NCBI GenBank assembly: GCA_964016885.1 | Contig: OZ024740.1 | Span: forward strand, 5,518,001-5,582,000 | Source: Eledone cirrhosa | Taxonomy: Eukaryota | Length of the DNA: 64,000 bases | Reading direction: 5' to 3' | In this document: one piece after another, positions 21,220-64,000 of the stretch | Layout: each line of letters starts with the position of its first letter | Position numbering within the stretch: position 1 is the stretch's first letter | Translations under genes and position numbers: made by a program | Notes under the pieces: generated by a model | Told to the model about the DNA's origin: nothing | Seen by the model: the letters and a program-made list of their open reading frames with translations, nothing else | Databases searched by the model: none

Positions 21220-22354
21220 CTATCCGTTAGGGTATAACGTGGGGCTGTAATACAGGAAAGTTTTGTGCAATTTATGTTTACAAGCCGAAATTGCCTCAGA
21301 TTTTTTGTTTAAGATGTGGTCTGTAGCGTAGAGTATTTCCAGGGCCTCAGCGGCGCAGAGGTCACATGGTCTTTTATTTCCGTTATACGATCTAGCCCTA
21401 GCTAGGATCTCCCAGTGTAACTTATATTGGGTGTGGTTGTCTTTTAGACTCCAGATATAAGCTGAAAGTGACGTCATATTCCTTCTTAGAGGGTAACGAA
21501 AAGAATGGGTATGCATGTAAAGACGCTGCTTGAAACTATTGGCGGTTAACCCTATGTAGGCCCTACGGGACGTGGGTGTTACAACCTTACATTTGTAGAC
21601 AATGTTACTAGAGAGGCAATTCCCGGATAGGGGGCAATCAGTCCGATTCCTACAATTACAGTTAGTACTACCTACAGGGTTGCACGTGTTCCTACGGCTA
21701 GGTAGTTTAGCTAAATTTAAAGCTGTGATGTTATATGCAAGGTTAGGAGTAGTAGAGTAAGAAATTTTAATAGTATTTCTATTAAAAATTTTACTATATT
21801 TATGTGTAGGGGGGAAATGCTTCGTAATAAGGGAAAGAAAGATCTTAGCTAATGGTGTGGCCACCTCCATATTATATGGTGGGTTAAACCAACAAATGCG
21901 ACGGGATCTATTCCTTCTAGGTCTATTTTCGTACACTGTATATGCTACCTTATCGACAAATCCACTTCGAGCAAGAGCTTCATTGTAATAAGTGGAATGG
22001 TCGTTGAAAATGCGCTCGTTGGTGGAAAGACGGGAAAGCCTCAACGAAACGTTTCTTACCAGGTTCTTGGTTATGCTGGCAGGATGGTTGGAATGCTTAC
22101 TTATGTAATTAAGCGTATCATTCGGCTTTCTATACGGGTAATACAACCCATTCAATAAATTGAAGGTAACGTCGAGGTAATTAACGACCGAGAGATTGGC
22201 CTCAACCTGTCTAGAGAGGTTGAAGCCTTTAAAGAAGGCTGTGAGTTCTTTTCTGAACCTGTCGCAAGCACGAGGTCCGCACTTAGTCATGGTCAAAAGA
22301 CCATCGTCACGGTACAAACCACCGCCCGCGTTGGGGAATTCGTCCTTGATAGAG

Positions 22355-22357: not shown

Positions 22358-22406
<49 letters not shown>

Positions 22407-22409
<3 letters not shown>

Positions 22410-22466
22410 AATGTAAGTATGTATGTATACGTACATACATATATGTATACAGACGTACAGTAGCAA

Positions 22467-22503
<37 letters not shown>

Positions 22504-22958
22504 TATATACATATGCATACAGGTACACATACATATATGCACGCATCAGTTTAGCCTACGTTTATTATAACGCCGGCCGCTTTGTTCGTTTGTTTGTCAA
22601 CAAAGCGAACAGCCTGAATTTATGCCATACGGTGTTAAGGCAACCACGTCACCTTTTTTTGTTCAACACTGACACAGGAACGATGTACTAATTTCAAGCT
22701 TGTTAGCTATCATCAGCACCGTTTACCCATCTGCCAGATAGTTGAACGTTCGAAAGTATATACTTTCCTTATGAAAATTAACGGCTGAGCAGCCTAATTT
22801 GCATATAGAGTGAGTTAAATCGGTCAGGCATACCGAAAACGATAAGTTGAAAAAAATGAAAACGAAATTTCATTTCTCACTCTTAGTATGGCACTTACTT
22901 AAATGTAAGTATGTATGTATACGTACATACATATATGTATACAGACGTACAGTAGCAA

Positions 22959-22995
<37 letters not shown>

Positions 22996-23414
22996 TGCAC
23001 GCATCAGTTTAGCCTACGTTTATTATAACGCCGGCCGCTTTGTTCGTTTGTTTGTCAACAAAGCGAACAGCCTGAATTTATGCCATACGGTGTTAAGGCA
23101 ACCACGTCACCTTTTTGTTCAACACTGACACAGGAACGATGTACTAGTTTCAAGCTTGTTAGCTATCATCAGCACCGTTTACCCATCTGCCAGATAGTTG
23201 AACGTTCGAAAGTATATACTTTCCTTATGAAAATTAACGGCTGAGCAGCCTAATTTGCATATAGAGTGAGTTAAAAAGGTCAGGCATACCGAAAACGATA
23301 AGTTGAAAAAAATGAAAACGAAATTTCATTTCTCACTCTTAGTATGGCACTTACTTAAATGTAAGTATGTATGTATACGTACATACATATATGTATACAG
23401 ACGTACAGTAGCAA

Positions 23415-23455
<41 letters not shown>

Positions 23456-24392
23456 TATACACATATGCATACAGGTACACATACATATATGCACGCATCA
23501 GTTTAGCCTACGTTTATTATAACGCCGGCCGCTTTGTTCGTTTGTTTGTCAACAAAGCGAACAGCCTGAATTTATGCCATACGGTGTTAAGGCAACCACG
23601 TCACCTTTTTGTTCAACACTGACACAGGAACGATGTACTAGTTTCAAGCTTGTTAGCTATCATCAGCACCGTTTACCCATCTGCCAGATAGTTGAACGTT
23701 CGAAAGTATATACTTTCCTTATGAAAATTAACGGCTGAGCAGCCTAATTTGCATATAGAGTGAGTTAAATCGGTCAGGCATACCGAAAACGATAAGTTGA
23801 AAAAAATGAAAACGAAATTTCATTTCTCACTCTTAGTATGGCACTTACTTAAATGTAAGTATGTATGTATACGTACATACATATATGTATACAGACGTAC
23901 AGTAGCAAGCATATATATATATATATATATATACATATATATACACATATGCATACAGGTACACATACATATATGCACGCATCAGTTTAGCCTACGTTTA
24001 TTATAACGCCGGCCGCTTTGTTCGTTTGTTTGTTAACAAAGCGAACAGCCTGAATTTATGCCATACGGTGTTAAGGCAACCACGTCACCTTTTTGTTCAA
24101 CACTGACACAGGAACGATGTACTAGTTTCAAGCTTGTTAGCTATCATCAGCACCGTTTACCCATCTGCCAGATAGTTGAACGTTCGAAAGTATATACTTT
24201 CCTTATGAAAATTAACGGCTGAGCAGCCTAATTTGCATATAGAGTGAGTTAAATCGGTCAGGCATACCGAAAACGATAAGTTGAAAAAAATGAAAACGAA
24301 ATTTCATTTCTCACTCTTAGTATGGCACTTACTTAAATGTAAGTATGTATGTATACGTACATACATATATGTATACAGACGTACAGTAGCAA

Positions 24393-24441
<49 letters not shown>

Positions 24442-25378
24442 TATACACATATGCATACAGGTACACATACATATATGCACGCATCAGTTTAGCCTACGTT
24501 TATTATAACGCCGGCCGCTTTGTTCGTTTGTTTGTCAACAAAGCGAACAGCCTGAATTTATGCCATACGGTGTTAAGGCAACCACGTCACCTTTTTGTTC
24601 AACACTGACACAGGAACGATGTACTAGTTTCAAGCTTGTTAGCTATCATCAGCACCGTTTACCCATCTGCCAGATAGTTGAACGTTCGAAAGTATATACT
24701 TTCCTTATGAAAATTAACGGCTGAGCAGCCTAATTTGCATATAGAGTGAGTTAAATCGGTCAGGCATACCGAAAACGATAAGTTGAAAAAAATGAAAACG
24801 AAATTTCATTTCTCACTCTTAGTATGGCACTTACTTAAATGTAAGTATGTATGTATACGTACATACATATATGTATACAGACGTACAGTAGCAAGCATAT
24901 ATATATATATATATATATACATATATATACACATATGCATACAGGTACACATACATATATGCACGCATCAGTTTAGCCTACGTTTATTATAACGCCGGCC
25001 GCTTTGTTCGTTTGTTTGTTAACAAAGCGAACAGCCTGAATTTATGCCATACGGTGTTAAGGCAACCACGTCACCTTTTTGTTCAACACTGACACAGGAA
25101 CGATGTACTAGTTTCAAGCTTGTTAGCTATCATCAGCACCGTTTACCCATCTGCCAGATAGTTGAACGTTCGAAAGTATATACTTTCCTTATGAAAATTA
25201 ACGGCTGAGCAGCCTAATTTGCATATAGAGTGAGTTAAATCGGTCAGGCATACCGAAAACGATAAGTTGAAAAAAATGAAAACGAAATTTCATTTCTCAC
25301 TCTTAGTATGGCACTTACTTAAATGTAAGTATGTATGTATACGTACATACATATATGTATACAGACGTACAGTAGCAA

Positions 25379-25417
<39 letters not shown>

Positions 25418-25535
25418 TATACACATATGCATACAGGTACACATACATATATGCACGCATCAGTTTAGCCTACGTTTATTATAACGCCGGCCGCTTTGTT
25501 CGTTTGTTTGTCAACAAAGCGAACAGCCTGAATTT
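22407..25535 (-). mobile_element. Tandem array of about 490-nt HHR-containing monomers (putative non-LTR retrozyme family C), about 6.5 copies
   Basis: HHRs at 22679-22723, 23135-23179, 23629-23673, 24113-24157, 24615-24659 and 25099-25143 (periods 456, 494, 484, 502, 484). Units differ mainly in internal (TA)n length; the 3' end abuts (TA)n. Confidence 0.88.
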
Positions 25536-25883
25536 TTTTCAACTTATCGTTTTCGGTATGCCTGACCGATTTAACTCACTCTATATGCAAATTAGGCTGC
25601 TCAGCCGTTAATTTTCATAAGGAAAGTATATACTTTCGAACGTTCAACTATCTGGCAGATGGGTAAACGGTGCTGATGATAGCTAACAAGCTTGAAACTA
25701 GTACATCGTTCCTGTGTCAGTGTTGAACAAAAAGGTGACGTGGTTGCCTTAACACCGTATGGCATAAATTCAGGCTGTTCGCTTTGTTGACAAACAAACG
25801 AACAAAGCGGCCGGCGTTATAATAAACGTAGGCTAAACTGATGCGTGCATATATGTATGTGTACCTGTATGCATATGTGTATA

Positions 25884-25914
<31 letters not shown>

Positions 25915-26029
25915 GCTTGCTACTGTACGTCTGTATACATATATGTATGTACGTATACATACATACTTACATTTAAGTAAGTGCCATACTAAGAGTGAGA
26001 AATGAAATTTCGTTTTCATTTTTTTCAAC
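25533..26029 (+). mobile_element. Inverted single monomer capping the family C array
   Basis: Reverse complement of one unit; starts and ends at TTTTTTCAAC, followed by (TA)n. Confidence 0.88.
25666..25710 (+). ncRNA. Minimal type I hammerhead ribozyme (family C)
   Basis: AACGGTG-CTGATGA-T-AGCT-aaca-AGCT-T-GAAA-CTAG-TA-CATCGTT: 7-bp stem I, palindromic CTAG stem III, GUA triplet (predicted cut after 25703). Confidence 0.85.
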
Positions 26030-26065
26030 CTATATATATATTTTTCTCTATCAAGGACGAATTCC

Positions 26066-26141
<76 letters not shown>

Positions 26142-26145
<4 letters not shown>

Positions 26146-26375
26146 TATAGACATAGAATATTCGAAAATATTCTGTATGTTTATAATAAACATTTTGAAG
26201 ACCTAATCGCTATAGAATAGAATACGTCACGTATTACAATTAGATTCTCGATAAAAGCAAGGGAAGTAATCTACGCGTTTCATTCTTATTAGAAATCTTC
26301 AGGACTACATATCCAGTGCTTTTATCGAGAATGACACAGCTAGAGACTTATAGAATACTTAGCTGTGTACAGGAA
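26142..26375 (-). mobile_element. Inverted partial monomer capping the family D array (contains HHR 26266-26308)
   Basis: Reverse complement of 26376-26606; hairpin centre CTGTGTACAG-gaa-CTGTACACAG; its 3' end ATTCA abuts (TA)n. Confidence 0.88.
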
Positions 26376-28500
26376 CTGTACACAGCTAAGTATTCTATAA
26401 GTCTCTAGCTGTGTCATTCTCGATAAAAGCACTGGATATGTAGTCCTGAAGATTTCTAATAAGAATGAAACGCGTAGATTACTTCCCTTGCTTTTATCGA
26501 GAATCTAATTGTAATACGTGACGTATTCTATTCTATAGCGATTAGGTCTTCAAAATGTTTATTATAAACATACAGAATATTTTCGAATATTCTATGTCTA
26601 TATTCACATATATATCGCTATTTCAGAGCATTTATTCCAATTTCTAATTTCTGCCGGACCGGCAACCGCTCTTTCAAACCAGTTCCTGTACACAGCTAAG
26701 TATTCTATAAGTCTCTAGCTGTGTCATTCTCGATAAAAGCACTGGATATGTAGTCCTGAAGATTTCTAATAAGAATGAAACGCGTAGATTACTTCCCTTG
26801 CTTTTATCGAGAATCTAATTGTAATACGTGACGTATTCTATTCTATAGCGATTAGGTCTTCAAAATGTTTATTATAAACATACAGAATATTTTCGAATAT
26901 TCTATGTCTATATTCACATATATATCGCTATTTCAGAGCATTTATTCCAATTTCTAATTTCTGCCGGACCGGCAACCGCTCTTTCAAACCAGTTCCTGTA
27001 CACAGCTAAGTATTCTATAAGTCTCTAGCTGTGTCATTCTCGATAAAAGCACTGGATATGTAGTCCTGAAGATTTCTAATAAGAATGAAACGCGTAGATT
27101 ACTTCCCTTGCTTTTATCGAGAATCTAATTGTAATACGTGACGTATTCTATTCTATAGCGATTAGGTCTTCAAAATGTTTATTATAAACATACAGAATAT
27201 TTTCGAATATTCTATGTCTATATTCACATATATATCGCTATTTCAGAGCATTTATTCCAATTTCTAATTTCTGCCGGACCGGCAACCGCTCTTTCAAACC
27301 AGTTCCTGTACACAGCTAAGTATTCTATAAGTCTCTAGCTGTGTCATTCTCGATAAAAGCACTGGATATGTAGTCCTGAAGATTTCTAATAAGAATGAAA
27401 CGCGTAGATTACTTCCCTTGCTTTTATCGAGAATCTAATTGTAATACGTGACGTATTCTATTCTATAGCGATTAGGTCTTCAAAATGTTTATTATAAACA
27501 TACAGAATATTTTCGAATATTCTATGTCTATATTCACATATATATCGCTATTTCAGAGCATTTATTCCAATTTCTAATTTCTGCCGGACCGGCAACCGCT
27601 CTTTCAAACCAGTTCCTGTACACAGCTAAGTATTCTATAAGTCTCTAGCTGTGTCATTCTCGATAAAAGCACTGGATATGTAGTCCTGAAGATTTCTAAT
27701 AAGAATGAAACGCGTAGATTACTTCCCTTGCTTTTATCGAGAATCTAATTGTAATACGTGACGTATTCTATTCTATAGCGATTAGGTCTTCAAAATGTTT
27801 ATTATAAACATACAGAATATTTTCGAATATTCTATGTCTATATTCACATATATATCGCTATTTCAGAGCATTTATTCCAATTTCTAATTTCTGCCGGACC
27901 GGCAACCGCTCTTTCAAACCAGTTCCTGTACACAGCTAAGTATTCTATAAGTCTCTAGCTGTGTCATTCTCGATAAAAGCACTGGATATGTAGTCCTGAA
28001 GATTTCTAATAAGAATGAAACGCGTAGATTACTTCCCTTGCTTTTATCGAGAATCTAATTGTAATACGTGACGTATTCTATTCTATAGCGATTAGGTCTT
28101 CAAAATGTTTATTATAAACATACAGAATATTTTCGAATATTCTATGTCTATATTCACATATATATCGCTATTTCAGAGCATTTATTCCAATTTCTAATTT
28201 CTGCCGGACCGGCAACCGCTCTTTCAAACCAGTTCCTGTACACAGCTAAGTATTCTATAAGTCTCTAGCTGTGTCATTCTCGATAAAAGCACTGGATATG
28301 TAGTCCTGAAGATTTCTAATAAGAATGAAACGCGTAGATTACTTCCCTTGCTTTTATCGAGAATCTAATTGTAATACGTGACGTATTCTATTCTATAGCG
28401 ATTAGGTCTTCAAAATGTTTATTATAAACATACAGAATATTTTCGAATATTCTATGTCTATATTCACATATATATCGCTATTTCAGAGCATTTATTCCAA
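26376..28500 (+). mobile_element. Tandem array of 310-nt HHR-containing monomers (putative non-LTR retrozyme family D), about 6.9 copies
   Basis: Exact 310-bp period (GTCTCTAGCT at 26401, 26711, ... 28261); HHRs start at 26440+310k (k=0-6); no differences seen between copies; ends in (TA)n. Confidence 0.9.
26440..26482 (+). ncRNA. Minimal type I hammerhead ribozyme (family D)
   Basis: GTAGTC-CTGAAGA-T-TTCT-aata-AGAA-T-GAAA-CGCG-TA-GATTAC; distal stem I extension ATTCTCGATAAAAGCA/TGCTTTTATCGAGAAT (16 bp); GUA triplet (predicted cut after 26476). Confidence 0.87.
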
Positions 28501-32605: not shown

Positions 32606-33359
32606 TAGGGGAAAATGAGGATAACAAAATAAATGGGCACTACAACGCTATTAGCTGTCAGTCCAGTGGAAAACAGGCGAAGGTGACGTCACTCGTCAAC
32701 ATCGTTTATTTCCGTATTACTACCACGCGTAAGTGGAGTTTTCACGCGTTTTTTTGAGAGAGAGAGAGGGAAGAGGAGAGATAGGGAAGACTTAAAAGGG
32801 CCAAATTAGAAAACAAATAGAAAAAACAAATAGAAAACAAGTCATGGTTATGAAGCATATCGATGTAAGTGGAGTTACTTAAATGAAAATATAGGTGGCC
32901 CTTAAAAGGGCCAAATTAGAAAACAAATTGAAGTTAATTAGAAAACAAGTCATGGTTTTCAATGTAGAAAACAAGTCATTCATGTGGGTATGGTGTGGCG
33001 TGCGGTGGCCGGAAGCGGGGGAGTGCTCGACCGGAAGGGTGCTTGGCTGGAAGGATGCTCGACCGGAAGGGCCAGCAGATGTGCCTCTCTCTAATGGTGA
33101 CCAGCAACGGTGTGGACGCGAGTTCTGGCAGCTCCCGGTGTTAAGGAGCTGGACGCACGCGGAAGAGGAGAAACTAGCAGTGGAATTTAGTGGCGCCTAT
33201 GAAAAGCGGTAAGTGAGATAGCTTTTTCTAACTACAAGCTATTTCGGCACTGGAAACAGATCTGATTGAAAAAAAAAAAAAAAAAAAAAAAAGCTACTGG
33301 AAAGACAGAGAGGAGTCTGTTGTTGTTTTTTTATCACGTACCGCAAGACAAATTAGAAG

Positions 33360-34121
33360 ATGGCAACAAGACTACGAACAAGCGAAGCGATCAGGGCATT
33401 TACCGGTGAAGGTGATGTTGTTGCTTGGCTGCGAAAAGTCCGGCTGGTCGCAAGCTTGCAGAAGATAGAAGATGTGGCTGGCCTCATGGCACTGTACCTC
33501 GAGGGGGACGCGTTGGTACTCTTCCTTGAGTTGGACGAACACAGCTAAAGAGATGCGCAAAAGATTGAGAGGCGCATGATGGAAGCATTCGCAGAGGGAC
33601 CGTTAGCCGCTTTCGTTAAGCTGGCAAGAATTAGATTGAACGGTGAACGCGTCGACATTTTCGCAGCGGAAATACGGCGATTGGCCATGTTAGCTGGATA
33701 TCAGGTGGAATGCGAACGCACGGTGCGGTTGGCGTTCATACATGGATTTCCAGACAACATAGCGGTGAAACTGCAGCAAGTCCCGGGTTACAAAGAAATG
33801 GAAATATGTTCACTGGTGGAACAAGCTCGGATCATAGCAGAAGATGCCAAGAAGAGTGTTGCGGCGATAGCAACTACAGAGGCTCAAGACAGCTGGCAGC
33901 GAAATGGTGAAAGGGAGGCAACCACGGCACGCGATCGCCCGCGAACGTTTAGAGGTCGCTGTTTTCAGTGCCAAGGCCCGCACATGGCTAGAGACTGCAG
34001 AGAGTCAAGGCCGGAAATAATATGCTACCGGTGTAAGCGACCAGGCCACATCGCTATTAACTGCGACCAGGGAAACGATCCAAGGGGAACTACTGCGCCG
34101 GTAGTTGCCCCTTACGACTAG
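33360..34121 (+). pseudogene. gag: Gypsy gag with two CCHC zinc knuckles (one in-frame stop)
   Basis: CFQCQGPHMARDC and CYRCKRPGHIAINC; stop at 33546-33548. Confidence 0.85.
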
Positions 34122-36910
34122 AGGCGCTGTCCGTGGTGGAAGTCTTCGTGAGGAGAAAGCCACAGCGAGCCCTCGTGGACACGGGCTGTACGACGACACT
34201 GGTGACCGCGGGGGTGGAGAGAAAAGAGCAGCGTAAAGGCAGTCGACGGCAGGAAAATTGAATGCCGAGGTCGCAGCGAGATGGAAATAGCGGTACGGTG
34301 AAGGAAAATAAGGCTTTCTGCCATCGTAGTAGACAGCGTGGTGGATGGGATCGGCGTGGTTATGGGCAAAGACGCAATTGGTCGTCTAGGAGGCGTCACA
34401 GTGAACAACGTCGGTGTGTTGTTTGGCGCCGCTGCATCGGTATGCGCTGTGAGTACGCGACAGGAGAACCAGAAGGCCCACGAGGAGAAATACCCCGCTT
34501 ACACTGTGCAGGACAAAGACTTCAAGGCCGTGTTCGATGGGCAGCGATGGATTGTTGAGTGGTACTGGAAGGGAGAACCACCAACACTGAAGACCAAAGT
34601 GGGCTGCTATCAACACACATTGAGGGGAAACATCAGGAGCAATTTCGAGCGAGAGGTAGAGAGATGGATTCAGGAGGGCATACTGCTTCCCTGGAAAGAG
34701 GTGAAGTGCGGAATATTGCCGTTAATGGCGGTGGAGCAACCCACGAAGAACAAGGTGAGGCCGGTGCTGGACTTTCGGGAGGTGAACGACCACATGTCAT
34801 GCCACACAGGTGGCGAGGTCACGGATGTCTGTGGGGAAACCCTGCGTGAGTGGAGACGCATGACGGGGGGGGGGGGGGTCAGCAATCGTATATCTAAAGT
34901 CGGCATACTTGCAATTGCATATAGATGAGAAGCTCTGGCAGTAGCAGCTGGTCAGGTATAAGGGCCGGACATATTGCCTGACCAGGCTCGGTTTCGGTCT
35001 GAGCTCCGCACCGAAGATCATGGCGGCGGCCCTCAAAACCATTCTGGGAAAGGCCGACAAGATGAAGTGGGCCACTAGCTCCTACTTTGACGAAATCCTA
35101 GTGGACGAGTCTGTGGTGTCGCCGGCGGAGGTCACGAGCCATTTACAAGGGTATGGACTGGCTGCGAAGCCGTGAGAAGCGTTGGAGGGAGGAGCCGCGC
35201 TGGGACTTAGGCTACGGCGAGACAGGACGGGCGTCTTGGTATTCCAGAGGGGAAATGAAGTTCCAGAACTGGGCCCAAGTATGAGTAGGCGGGAGCTTTT
35301 CTCGGTGTGTGGAAAGTTGGTGGGTCACTACCCGATTGCTGGGTGACTCCGGAAGCATGCAGCTATGTCAAGAGACGAGCGGGAGGGGTGACAGAGTGGG
35401 AGAGAGGACGGTGGCCATGATGCAGGAGATCGTGGGGAGGGTCAAGGCCGACGACCCAGTGCGGGGACGCTGATATGTTCCCAAATCACAGAGCGGGACC
35501 GTATGGTGCGATGCCAGCAGCATAGCGCTGGGTGTCACGTTGGAGATAGAAGGTGTTGAGGTCGAGGATGCAGCCTGGCTTAGGAAGAAGGACGACTGCA
35601 ACCACATCAATGTGGCTGAACTGGACGCAGTGTTGAGAGGGGTGAACCTCGCCCTGAGGTGGGGACTGCGCACCATCGAGATACGCACCGACTCGGCTAC
35701 TGTACTCGGATGGGTGAGATCAGTGCTCACCAGTGAGAAAAGAGTGCGAACGAGAGGGGCGGCGGAGATGCTGATAAAGCGCCGCCTGGGAATTTTAGGA
35801 GAGCTGGCCACCGAGTTCGACCTGAGGCTGAGCGTAGTTTTCGTGCCCTCAGAGAAAAATAGGGCGGACGTCTTAACTATGGTGAAGAAAGCCTGGATGG
35901 AAGCGCCGGAGGAGGTAGAAGATGAGATAGCTGCCGTGTGTCGGCTGACCGAGTCGGATCTGAAAGGGTTGCATGACATGCACCACATGGGAGTGGAGAG
36001 GAGCCTGTTCCTAGCCAGGAGAATCGACTCGGACGTTAACAGACACAGTGTTCAAAGGGTGGTTAGAGGCTGCGTCCGATGTCAGTCCATTGATCCCGCT
36101 CCGCGTGTGCACGAAACGGGAAGCCTCCCGGTGGATCGCGACTGGAAGCGATTAGCGGTGGATGTAACGCACTACCGGCAGGGAACGTACCTCTCGATGG
36201 TCGACTGTGGACCAGGACGGATGGCGATATGGAGGGAGATGAAGACTGGAACGGCCGAGGAAATCATGCGGACGTTGAGAGAGGTGTTCTTGGAGTGGGG
36301 CCCTGTGGACGAACTGCTGATGGACAACAACGCAGCATTCCGCTCGGAGGCGCTGAGGGAGATGATCGATGGATGGAAGGTGGACCGTTTCTTCAGAGCA
36401 GCGCTCAGGCCGTGCGGGAATGGAATTGTGGAGCGACACCACCGGACGATCAAGGCAATGGCGGAGCGGGGCCATATCTCACCAATGGAGGCAGTGTTCT
36501 GGTACAACATGTCCCCTCGGGTAGGACAGGTCGAGGAATCGGTGCCACACAGAGCAGTATTCAAATACGAGTGGCGGCACCTGTGCGCGCCACCACAACG
36601 GCCAGTGGGGAGAGAGAGTGCATTTGTGCAGGTGGGCGAAGAAGTCTGGGTTAAGTCCCCAGATGCACGTTGCACATCTCAATGGGGAAGAGGAACGGTG
36701 ACGGCCGTAAATTCCCAGAACAATGTGTCCGTGGACGGAGTACCACGTCATGTCCTGGATGTCCGTAGAATCCCTGTGTCAACGGACTCCGAGGAAGAGG
36801 AAACCCAAAGTGCCGCCCCAACACTGCGGAGATCGCAAAGAAGTCGCAAACCACCAACCTGGACAGCAGACTTTCATATGCAGAAGGACGAGGGGGAAAT
36901 TGATCCTTGA
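34122..36910 (+). pseudogene. pol: Gypsy pol (protease, RT, RNase H, integrase), disrupted
   Basis: ALVDTGC protease; RPVLDFR, LGFGL and YFDEIL (RT); WCDAS/ELDA/TDS (RNase H); HH..CxxC, AVD, MDN and NGIVER (integrase). Confidence 0.88.
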
Positions 36911-51710: not shown

Positions 51711-52470
51711 GGTTCTTCATCTTTATCTTTCTCTTCTTCATCTGTGTATTCATCTTCTTTGTTTTGTCTTCCATCTAAACAAAAAAATATATATAAAACA
51801 TATATGTAGCCAATTTCTCAGACTTTTACAAAGCTCCAGGGAGATAAATTTAATATAAGTGGTGTGTTCCTGAACAGAGATACTACAAAATAGCTTAAAA
51901 GCTATATATATATATACATATATATATAAATAAATATACACGGGTGTGTATGATTGTGTATAGAAGATTATATTAATAAAAGGAATTCCAACTTTGTCTG
52001 ATTTACTCGTTTTATTTACAATCCTTTAAAATTATAATCGTATTAGAATGAAATAGTATGGTAGAATATTAAGTGTTAAGTGTTAATTGAACAAGTAATT
52101 TCATGCTTTCGCAATCTTCAGGTTCATATTCTGTGGTGACAGTCAAGTTTACAATTTTCAACTGTAATGAGATGGGTAAATTTTGTACCTTATATACAGT
52201 GAAAAGCGGCTACAGAATGCTAAATTTTGCAAACTGTATTTCGACCAATCGGTGTGTATTTTCACTAGATTACTGAAGCTGATTGGTTTAGGCATCACGG
52301 TTGATTGGGCATGTCTAACGACTTCTATTTGGCTCTATTCAAAGCATCAATTGTTTTGCTATTTTAAGAAATGATGAAAATAGCATTTTCTAGGGTTTTC
52401 ATACTCCTAATAATTATTATTGTTCATTTAGCTTGGGTTGGGATTTTGAAACATATTCCCAAATGCAAAT

Positions 52471-52761
52471 ATGAACTGCAAAAGCAGAAATCTAATTTAC
52501 TGGATTAAATGCCCGAATTGTGAAGAACTATATGTCGGTCAAACTGGAAATGCACTATCGGAACGTGCACGGGTGCACCGACAGCAAATCAGAGACCCAA
52601 ATGTCCGTCAGATACCCCTGAGTAACTATCTAGCAGCATGTCGTCAGAAAATATTTATAATATTTCCATTCTACAAATTACACAGGCCAAGTGAAATCAA
52701 GAGAAAAATCAAAGAAAATAATTTTATTGATAAATTCCAACCCAAGCTAAATGAACAATAA
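52471..52761 (+). pseudogene. PLE GIY-YIG endonuclease fragment
   Basis: CKSRNLIYWIKCPNCEELYVGQTG..L.ER..VH...E..FI....PKLN. Confidence 0.85.
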
Positions 52762-53051
52762 TAATTCTTGGGGGCGTAAAAACCCTAGAAAATGCTATTT
52801 ACATCATTTCTAAAAACAGCAAAACAATTGATTCTTTGGATAGAGCCAAATAGAAGTCGTTAGACATGCTCGACCAACCATGGCGCCTAAACCAATCAGC
52901 TTCAGTAATCCAGTGAAACTACACACCAATTGGTCGAAATACAGTTTGCAAAATTTAGCATTCTGTAGCCGCTTTTCACTGTATATAAGGCACAAAATTT
53001 ACCCATCTCATTACAGTTGAAAATTGCAAACTTGACTGTCACCACAGAATA

Positions 53052-53090
53052 TGAACCTGAAGATTACGAAAGCATGAAAGTACTTGTTCA
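53052..53090 (+). ncRNA. Minimal type I hammerhead ribozyme (family E)
   Basis: TGAAC-CTGAAGA-T-TAC-gaaa-GCA-T-GAAA-GTAC-TT-GTTCA; the inverted copy at 52088-52126 has an intact TGC-gaaa-GCA stem II. Confidence 0.75.
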
Positions 53091-53166
53091 ATTAACATTT
53101 AACACTTAATATTCTACCATACTATTCAGATTACATCTATAAAATTCAGATTACATCTATATATAT

Positions 53167-63701: not shown

Positions 63702-64000
63702 TATATATATGAATGTATATATAGTGTATTTTGCAATACACTGTATGCTTAATTAAAAGCATTTTGAAGACCATGTTTTAAAGTAGCGCCATTGTCGCTT
63801 ACTTAAATTTTAGGCAGACAAGGGGAGATAAGTTGACAGCGCTGTTTCGTACTAATTGGCAGATGGGGGAGAGTACTGAGTTTTGACAAGTACCAATTAG
63901 TACGAAACAGCGCTGTCAACTTATCTCCCCTTGTCTGCCGAAAATTTAAGTAAGCGACAATGTCGCTACTTTAAAACAATAGCGTATGGTCTTCAAAATG
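63702..64000 (+). mobile_element. Retrozyme/pLTR-like element (family F) with inverted 5' head; continues past the window end
   Basis: 63760-63859 is the reverse complement of 63893-64000 (with an indel); contains an HHR; the 3' motif is homologous to family D. Confidence 0.75.
63858..63939 (+). ncRNA. Extended type I hammerhead ribozyme with U3-A8 core variant (family F)
   Basis: GGCAGAT-GGGGGAGA-gtact-GAGTT-TTGACAA-GTAC-caatta-GTAC-GAAA-CAGCGCTG-TC-AACTT-a-TCTCCCC-tt-GTCTGCC; GUC triplet (predicted cut after 63917). Confidence 0.78.

Follow-up and report, generated by a model that had tools for sequence, protein, structure and literature searches.

Metazoan non-LTR retrozymes consist of tandem non-coding units of ~300 nt, each with one type I hammerhead, and circular templates as well as mobilisation by Penelope-like elements (PLEs) have been proposed for them (PMC7229834; 10.64898/2026.07.22.740005). 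The insertions described here are alike in all these respects, whereas the accessible portions of those accounts hold neither a fold at the start site, nor a rule of two end sites, nor a back-to-back geometry; in our retrozymes there is no pLTR match to the sampled autonomous elements, and cleavage and circles are predictions. The hammerheads themselves resemble the minimal ones of PLEs, which are of type I, have a palindromic stem III and occur with C3-G8 and U3-A8 cores, the U3-A8 core variant being already described there (PMC4209133); that work, in its accessible part, covers the ribozyme and not a domain downstream of it. EN+ Penelope-like insertions share with ours the head-to-head arms, an inverted 5'-truncated copy, a 30-40-nt tail at one end and (TA)n targets, and their tail has been described as optional and explained by endonuclease resolution or by antisense self-priming (PMC8557442; PMC3846280). 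The one-sided tail found here is this known Penelope tail, but 65 of the 66 classifiable insertions carry it just once, and it is tied to a sense-strand fold that covaries.

For one PLE, the Poseidon element PAc of Anolis, the tail has been identified with the stretch between two RT start sites (PMC11167929). According to the main text of that study, both target strands are cut and extended in vitro, RNA 3' of the start is required, an RT dimer is predicted, and the start sites show no strand preference in vitro (PMC11167929). PAc resembles the present families in that a hammerhead is followed by two internal RT starts, of which one lies in a stem-loop, in the tail length of 30-40 nt and in AT-rich targets. 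It differs from them in being one autonomous element with the sites inside its ORF and no comparative structure in the main text, and in the lack of strand or site pairing in vitro (PMC11167929), whereas the genomic ends analysed here pair one site A with one site B. Neither the class of element nor the idea of two starts is new. A conserved fold around both starts, that is a covarying start-site domain, and a strict one-A-one-B rule were not found in the literature, in a search chiefly of openly readable papers; the earlier note on this DNA knew of no description of its motif, but two internal start sites in a stem-loop region had already been published for one PLE (PMC11167929).

That note had proposed a covarying two-hairpin motif, shared by two hammerhead families (D and F) and ending at the integration junction, in the window, i.e., the whole 64,000-nt stretch of Eledone cirrhosa DNA that was analysed. 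In D the motif lies at 26535-26615 as described, and each of the seven array units has it, as does the inverted arm (Table 1). The F motif, placed at 63702-63772 (-) and 63979-64000, is present as well, but the sequence quoted for it is a composite of two arms; it can be read in one piece in the forward arm, whose continuation beyond the window (locus L031) shows the whole sequence. Within the window, hammerhead motifs are found in all seven D units, in the D inverted arm and in F, and by motif reading the D hammerhead has a C3-G8 and the F hammerhead a U3-A8 core, both being of type I with a palindromic stem III. The D array is non-coding, the frames of at least 150 aa that touch it being TA-run frames only.

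Table 1. Positions of arms, ribozymes and predicted structural parts of families D, F and C in the window.
Feature	Positions	Strand	Remarks
Forward arm of family D, array of seven 310-nt units, the first incomplete	26376..28499	+	ends at site B, adjoins (TA)n
Family D inverted arm	26142..26378	-	ends at site A, adjoins (TA)n
D type I hammerhead, one per unit	26440..26482	+	core 26446-26452, palindromic stem III, predicted cut after 26476
P1, 5' strand	26535..26542	+	predicted partner 26614-26621 in tail; closes multi-way junction
Conserved unpaired linker	26545..26554	+	recognisable in D, F, G, H, I
P2 (first hairpin of the earlier note)	26555..26571	+	one U-A/C-G change, with U-G intermediates; absent in H
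P3 (second hairpin of the earlier note)	26574..26593	+	double changes: 2 within D/F, 5 with G
P4 hairpin	26594..26609	+	site A at ~26605-26606, in loop or at its 3' edge; register varies by family
33-nt tail, site A to site B	26607..26639	+	contains P1 3' strand (26614-26621) and P0 5' strand (26625-26629)
Site B	26639..26641	+	predicted single-stranded stretch
P5 hairpin, 3' of site B	26652..26664	+	predicted fold
P0, 3' strand	26668..26672	+	partner 26625-26629 across site B; possible only in tandem or circular RNA
Family F inverted arm	63710..63861	-	ends at site A
Family F forward arm	63857..64000	+	hammerhead core 63883-63889 (U3-A8 variant); reaches site B 83 nt past window end
Family C insertion	22405..26030	array on -, inverted arm 25545-26029 on +	A/B geometry as in D/F; weaker relative

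The core pattern of the motif is matched exactly at 22,467 places in the 3.0-Gb genome (G000) and its reversed control at 0, and the recurrence of the motif can therefore not be ascribed to chance; the domain family is extremely abundant and recently active in this genome. Judged from their sequences, D and F, which had been taken for two separate families, are subfamilies of one hammerhead retrozyme of 310-322 nt, 61-66% identical and homologous over the whole unit, with 61.5% identity (304 columns) and 66% between full units. The 98 full units reduce to 34 distinct sequences, 29 of which hold the strict hammerhead core, and these to 9 clusters at 90%, with 60-89% identity between clusters. 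Among the 9 representatives, column identity is 0.77-0.88 in the motif and tail, 0.76-0.85 in the next 80 nt and 0.48-0.62 in the hammerhead rod. Since D and F are homologous throughout, the motif is common to them by descent, and it lies in that half of the unit which is conserved best. A possible start codon in the linker, a possible intron and a possible pseudoknot of linker and tail were weighed by eye; the short frames of D are not those of F.

Collecting homologues and building covariance models, the check recommended in the earlier note, led to three more distant families (G, H and I). A weak match of model R1 in an unrelated locus (E 0.014) is family G (42 matches, with 40 of 318 candidates scored), which in turn led to family H (81 matches, with 40 of 2,025 scored). 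Model R3, for which only D, F and G supplied sequences, finds H with a best E of 6e-5 and an old family, I (52 matches), with a best E of 1e-13. Units measure 310 nt in D, 317-322 nt in F, 316-341 nt in G and 323-330 nt in H. In the old family I (L468-L496) the length of P3 is variable, and in many copies this hairpin is reduced to a short palindrome. Family C, a hammerhead retrozyme with a unit of 456-502 nt, a TA-rich inner part and a tail of ~50 nt, shares a 28-nt block with G (24/28 identical, above all 500 shuffles), folds P0 and P4 within a similar outer frame (P1, P4, P0, P5) and has a covarying helix across site B; with the covariance model it stays below significance (best E ~0.01), and we regard it as a weaker relative. 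Rfam 15 gave no match above gathering score over the motif in the window or in five loci of F, G, H, I and C.

Modelling suggests that the motif is the core of a conserved RNA domain of ~150 nt, common to D, F, G, H and I, whose predicted parts are a closing helix, hairpins and a long-range helix bridging the second end. The motif is larger than first described, since the sequence held in common goes on for 33 nt beyond ATTCA and for a further ~80 nt in the next unit. RNAalifold returned P1, P2 and P3 on an alignment of 43 D/F copies (from 61 distinct ones, large-indel or truncated copies left out), and with P4 added 95.8% of the cells are paired in D/F, compared to 19-59% in controls with slid partners, the structure being derived from the same sequences that were used to score covariation. 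The three compensatory stem changes named in the earlier note are present in this alignment. Four of the 26 pairs are double-changed, three of them with G-U intermediates, a count that does not beat a column shuffle (341/500). Simulations along the ML tree (400 for each of three roots, the tree being computed from 111 columns) reached the observed paired fraction or the observed double-change cells in 0/400, and the four replicated double-changed pairs in 1-6/400. On the sense strand G-U pairs outnumber A-C pairs by 30 to 13, where the null of the D/F tree simulations is about even, and the intermediates in P2+P3 favour sense RNA, 17 vs 4. P1 shows no double change in D/F, and its inner pair is broken in 8/43 rows.

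With G included, 11 of 32 pairs are double-changed, in all five helices counted, and 91% of the cells are paired (slid controls 26-47%), these counts being based on 20 of 34 tandem-internal copies, with family H outside them. The number of double-changed pairs again does not beat a column shuffle (59/500), and the double changes map to a few deep splits of the tree. Folding full units as circles adds a predicted long-range helix, P0, in which part of the tail pairs with a strand located ~30 nt beyond site B. Unit-wide, 28 of 92 predicted pairs are double-changed, the hammerhead rod having more such changes than the motif; since the whole unit covaries, covariation alone does not single out the domain, which is set apart by its higher identity and its position. 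Family H, folded unaided, forms P1, P3, P4, P0 and P5 (z -4.4) and swaps two further P0 pairs, in 19/19 and 18/19 copies. P2 is absent from H, so that an essential role of this first hairpin is not supported; it is also not formed in single-sequence folding of D. For the second pair of P5 a subfamily was sought, and of the 4 copies found 1 was complementary, which gives no support for a double change.

The extra-stable UUCG tetraloop is closed by C-G. The swap of a UUCG for a GNRA tetraloop between the two families, named in the earlier note, is not supported: GNRA occurs in one F subfamily only, others have non-GNRA loops, and the UUCG of D is closed by U-A. In the predicted fold, site A falls within the P4 loop or at its edge, whereas site B falls within a single strand enclosed by P0; as the 3' strand of P0 lies beyond site B, the fold can form only in an RNA that extends further than both starts. 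On the whole, the model points to predicted helices, including the one spanning site B, that are kept by compensatory change.

The inverted arms of D and F indeed stop at ATTCA beside (TA)n (26142 and 63710), as had been observed, but ATTCA is not the single end of the element: two ends exist, A and B, one per arm. Among 129 arms from 72 loci and the window, 54 end at site A, 57 at site B, 33 nt further on, and 18 elsewhere. The arms form 49 divergent pairs, 16 of which have an end elsewhere, and the 33 with both ends at A or B comprise 32 A+B, 1 A+A and 0 B+B pairs (binomial P 4e-9 for 32/33 vs 50%). The same regularity is seen in loci chosen by the core pattern alone, without regard to ends (24/25 A+B), and in another 28 loci selected because they have a B end, with 14 pairs of which 9 were classifiable (9/9 A+B). 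Read by eye, A+B pairs account for 13/14 in H, 2/3 in G and 9/10 in C, none being A+A or B+B and the remaining pairs having one end elsewhere or cut off. Over all families, 65 of the 66 classifiable pairs thus join one A to one B.

A TA run stands beside 44 of the 54 A ends, where the element's own letters are TA-like, and beside 51 of the 57 B ends, i.e., at 95/111 ends at A or B as opposed to 1/18 other ends. The tail from A to B measures 33 nt in D and most F, ~37 nt in one F subfamily, 32 nt in G and ~38-40 nt in H. The TA microhomology to the target that had been suggested is seen at site A in most families, but as a general or obligatory rule it is not supported: at site B it amounts to 0-4 nt by eye, with none in one F subfamily, and the family C copy in the window likewise lacks it, by eye, at site A. 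In family H, site A also occurs in a second position, ~10 nt upstream and again within TA-like sequence.

Of 32 insertions, 15 have a B arm that exceeds the A arm plus tail in length and 17 do not, so that neither arm is a fold-back copy of the other. Both arms belong to the same subfamily class in 27/27 readable pairs, F sequences differ by 2.3 per 58 nt within vs 5.0 between insertions (0/20,000 permutations), and among 75 full D units in 12 insertions 73 equal the majority of their own insertion, the insertions differing from each other by 0-10. This uniformity of arms and units within insertions indicates that each insertion was copied from one unit variant, which is expected of a circular monomer or of a uniform parent array. 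A look for RNA data sets carrying the unit listed none; three runs of unrecorded kind contain one 340-nt D-unit record each, a finding that fits an RNA circle and tandem DNA alike and was left out of the argument. A D insertion in locus L047 (4206-4650) has a double inversion where its two arms meet.

Covariation and fixed ends together support the proposal, already contained in the earlier note, of a selected RNA structure on the hammerhead-sense strand that is tied to the start of copying. We consider it probable that the domain positions a borrowed Penelope-like RT-endonuclease and that copying starts at two fixed sites on one RNA. The enzyme would be borrowed by D, F, G, H and I from a Penelope-like element, and a dimer of it would bind a single RNA in an asymmetric way, so that copying by one subunit starts in the P4 loop (site A) and by the other in the single strand inside P0 (site B). 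The two starts, 33-40 nt apart, would serve one cut strand each of the TA-repeat target, their position being set by the fold, while short TA-like matches might fine-tune site A. Both cDNAs would then run on, probably round a circular monomer, and joining of their far ends would yield a back-to-back insertion with a one-sided tail.

More speculative, and in our view rather doubtful in its entirety, is a picture in which an RT dimer grips one circular RNA via the domain, primes both nicked strands from A and B and carries both cDNAs round that circle by rolling synthesis; the domain of ~150 nt could then be seen as a portable boundary-and-start element, in its role like the template boundary of telomerase RNA. 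If true, such a mechanism of rolled cDNAs and an RT dimer would cover the Penelope tail and the inverted repeat at once. To the long-standing question of how PLEs make inverted arms together with a one-sided tail, and to that of what lets protein-free retrozymes borrow an enzyme, we contribute an RNA domain that is compact and covaries, in which loops contain both mapped start sites, and a strict pairing rule. The mechanism of Penelope tail and inversion is directly testable in the published in vitro assay (PMC11167929).

It is unlikely, in our estimation, that the fold serves instead the RNA's own life (stability of the circle, folding of the hammerhead, a host ligase or export), with the starts set by primary sequence and by TA matches that happen to lie inside it. 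Covariation extends over the whole unit and is strongest in the hammerhead rod, and metazoan retrozymes do form stable circles (PMC7229834). Regarding the starts, site A is TA-like in D, F, G, H and most C, as is the second A position of H, yet site B is precise with a match of 0-4 nt, and the A-B spacing, the location of A in the P4 loop and that of B inside P0 persist as the sequence changes. The one-A-one-B rule would be left unexplained.

The ends could also be made in DNA, by an endonuclease that cuts the tail region of a double-stranded or hairpin intermediate 33 nt apart, the stems being cruciform or protein-binding signals; to this we give little credence. A staggered cut would yield one A and one B directly, and the tail has been ascribed to endonuclease resolution of an intermediate (PMC8557442) and is, as cited in PMC11167929, needed for recognition by the Penelope EN; in vitro, however, RT starts at the tail ends (PMC11167929). 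Self-priming on an antisense template has been proposed (PMC3846280), but fold-back would demand that one arm lie wholly within the other, and this does not hold in either direction. As for the strand, stable antisense folds equal or beat the sense folds for D and one F copy, whereas two F3-type copies fold well on the sense strand only, and the G-U intermediates in P2+P3 favour sense RNA. That the motif reflects nothing but common descent, or a DNA-level internal promoter or splice signal with compensatory changes due to chance, is highly improbable. In favour of such a reading are the homology of D and F over their whole length, the promoters and introns present in PLE pLTRs (PMC8557442, PMC3846280) and the small number of independent change events; against it, the tree simulations fall short of the observed pairing, the long-range P0 and P1 covary across families, and the ends lie at fixed places in the fold.

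The preferred reading, a borrowed RT-endonuclease positioned by the domain, raises the issue of the autonomous partner. Among the PLE families sampled from a genome that holds more of them, the domain was not found on any autonomous element. It has no copy in the 3' flanks of Hydra-type (30 loci), Neptune-type (30 loci) and ~900-aa families, whose tails measure ~87, 60 and 42 nt, respectively (clade names being taken from linker motifs, Hydra according to PMC8557442), nor in 30 of the 150 listed GIY-YIG matches and the fragments in other loci. Covariance-model scans of PLE loci matched inserted retrozyme copies or TA-rich noise only. A pattern of the tail followed by new sequence had 338 matches, with no recurring new continuation among the 100 listed, and an ORF with RT and GIY-YIG endonuclease is absent from the units and from the sequence joined to them. 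Metagenome matches to the pattern (101) were judged to be chance, because none extends past the pattern. Junctions with D or F arms (L038, L123, L152, L108 and L349) were rejected as evidence for a partner, as they point to three different families.

An intact PLE of the ~900-aa family in the same genome (L364-L367, 3127-nt tandems) has the A/B layout in 3/3 insertions read, and its tail of ~42 nt covers the likely start codon. The window itself carries, at 21220-22353 (-), a 5'-truncated PLE ORF whose linker shows the CxCX5C motif typical for the Hydra clade; its family is young, has open frames of 713 aa elsewhere and shows two ends ~87 nt apart.

A further back-to-back hammerhead insertion is located at ~1400-1830 of the window (cores at 1590 (-) and 1728 (+)), and relatives of it are joined to D or F arms without TA in L038, L123 and L152. 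At ~51900-53150 the window contains a back-to-back insertion of a PLE 3' end, which includes part of an endonuclease and, near 53058, a hammerhead; in L108 a relative is joined to an F arm. A match to the histone 3' UTR stem-loop at 32873-32917 (-) has exactly the gathering score (34 bits), and no histone frame was noticed in the window. Finally, broken LTR-retrotransposon-like frames (zinc knuckle, RT-like and integrase-like) were recognised by eye at 33549-36910 (+).
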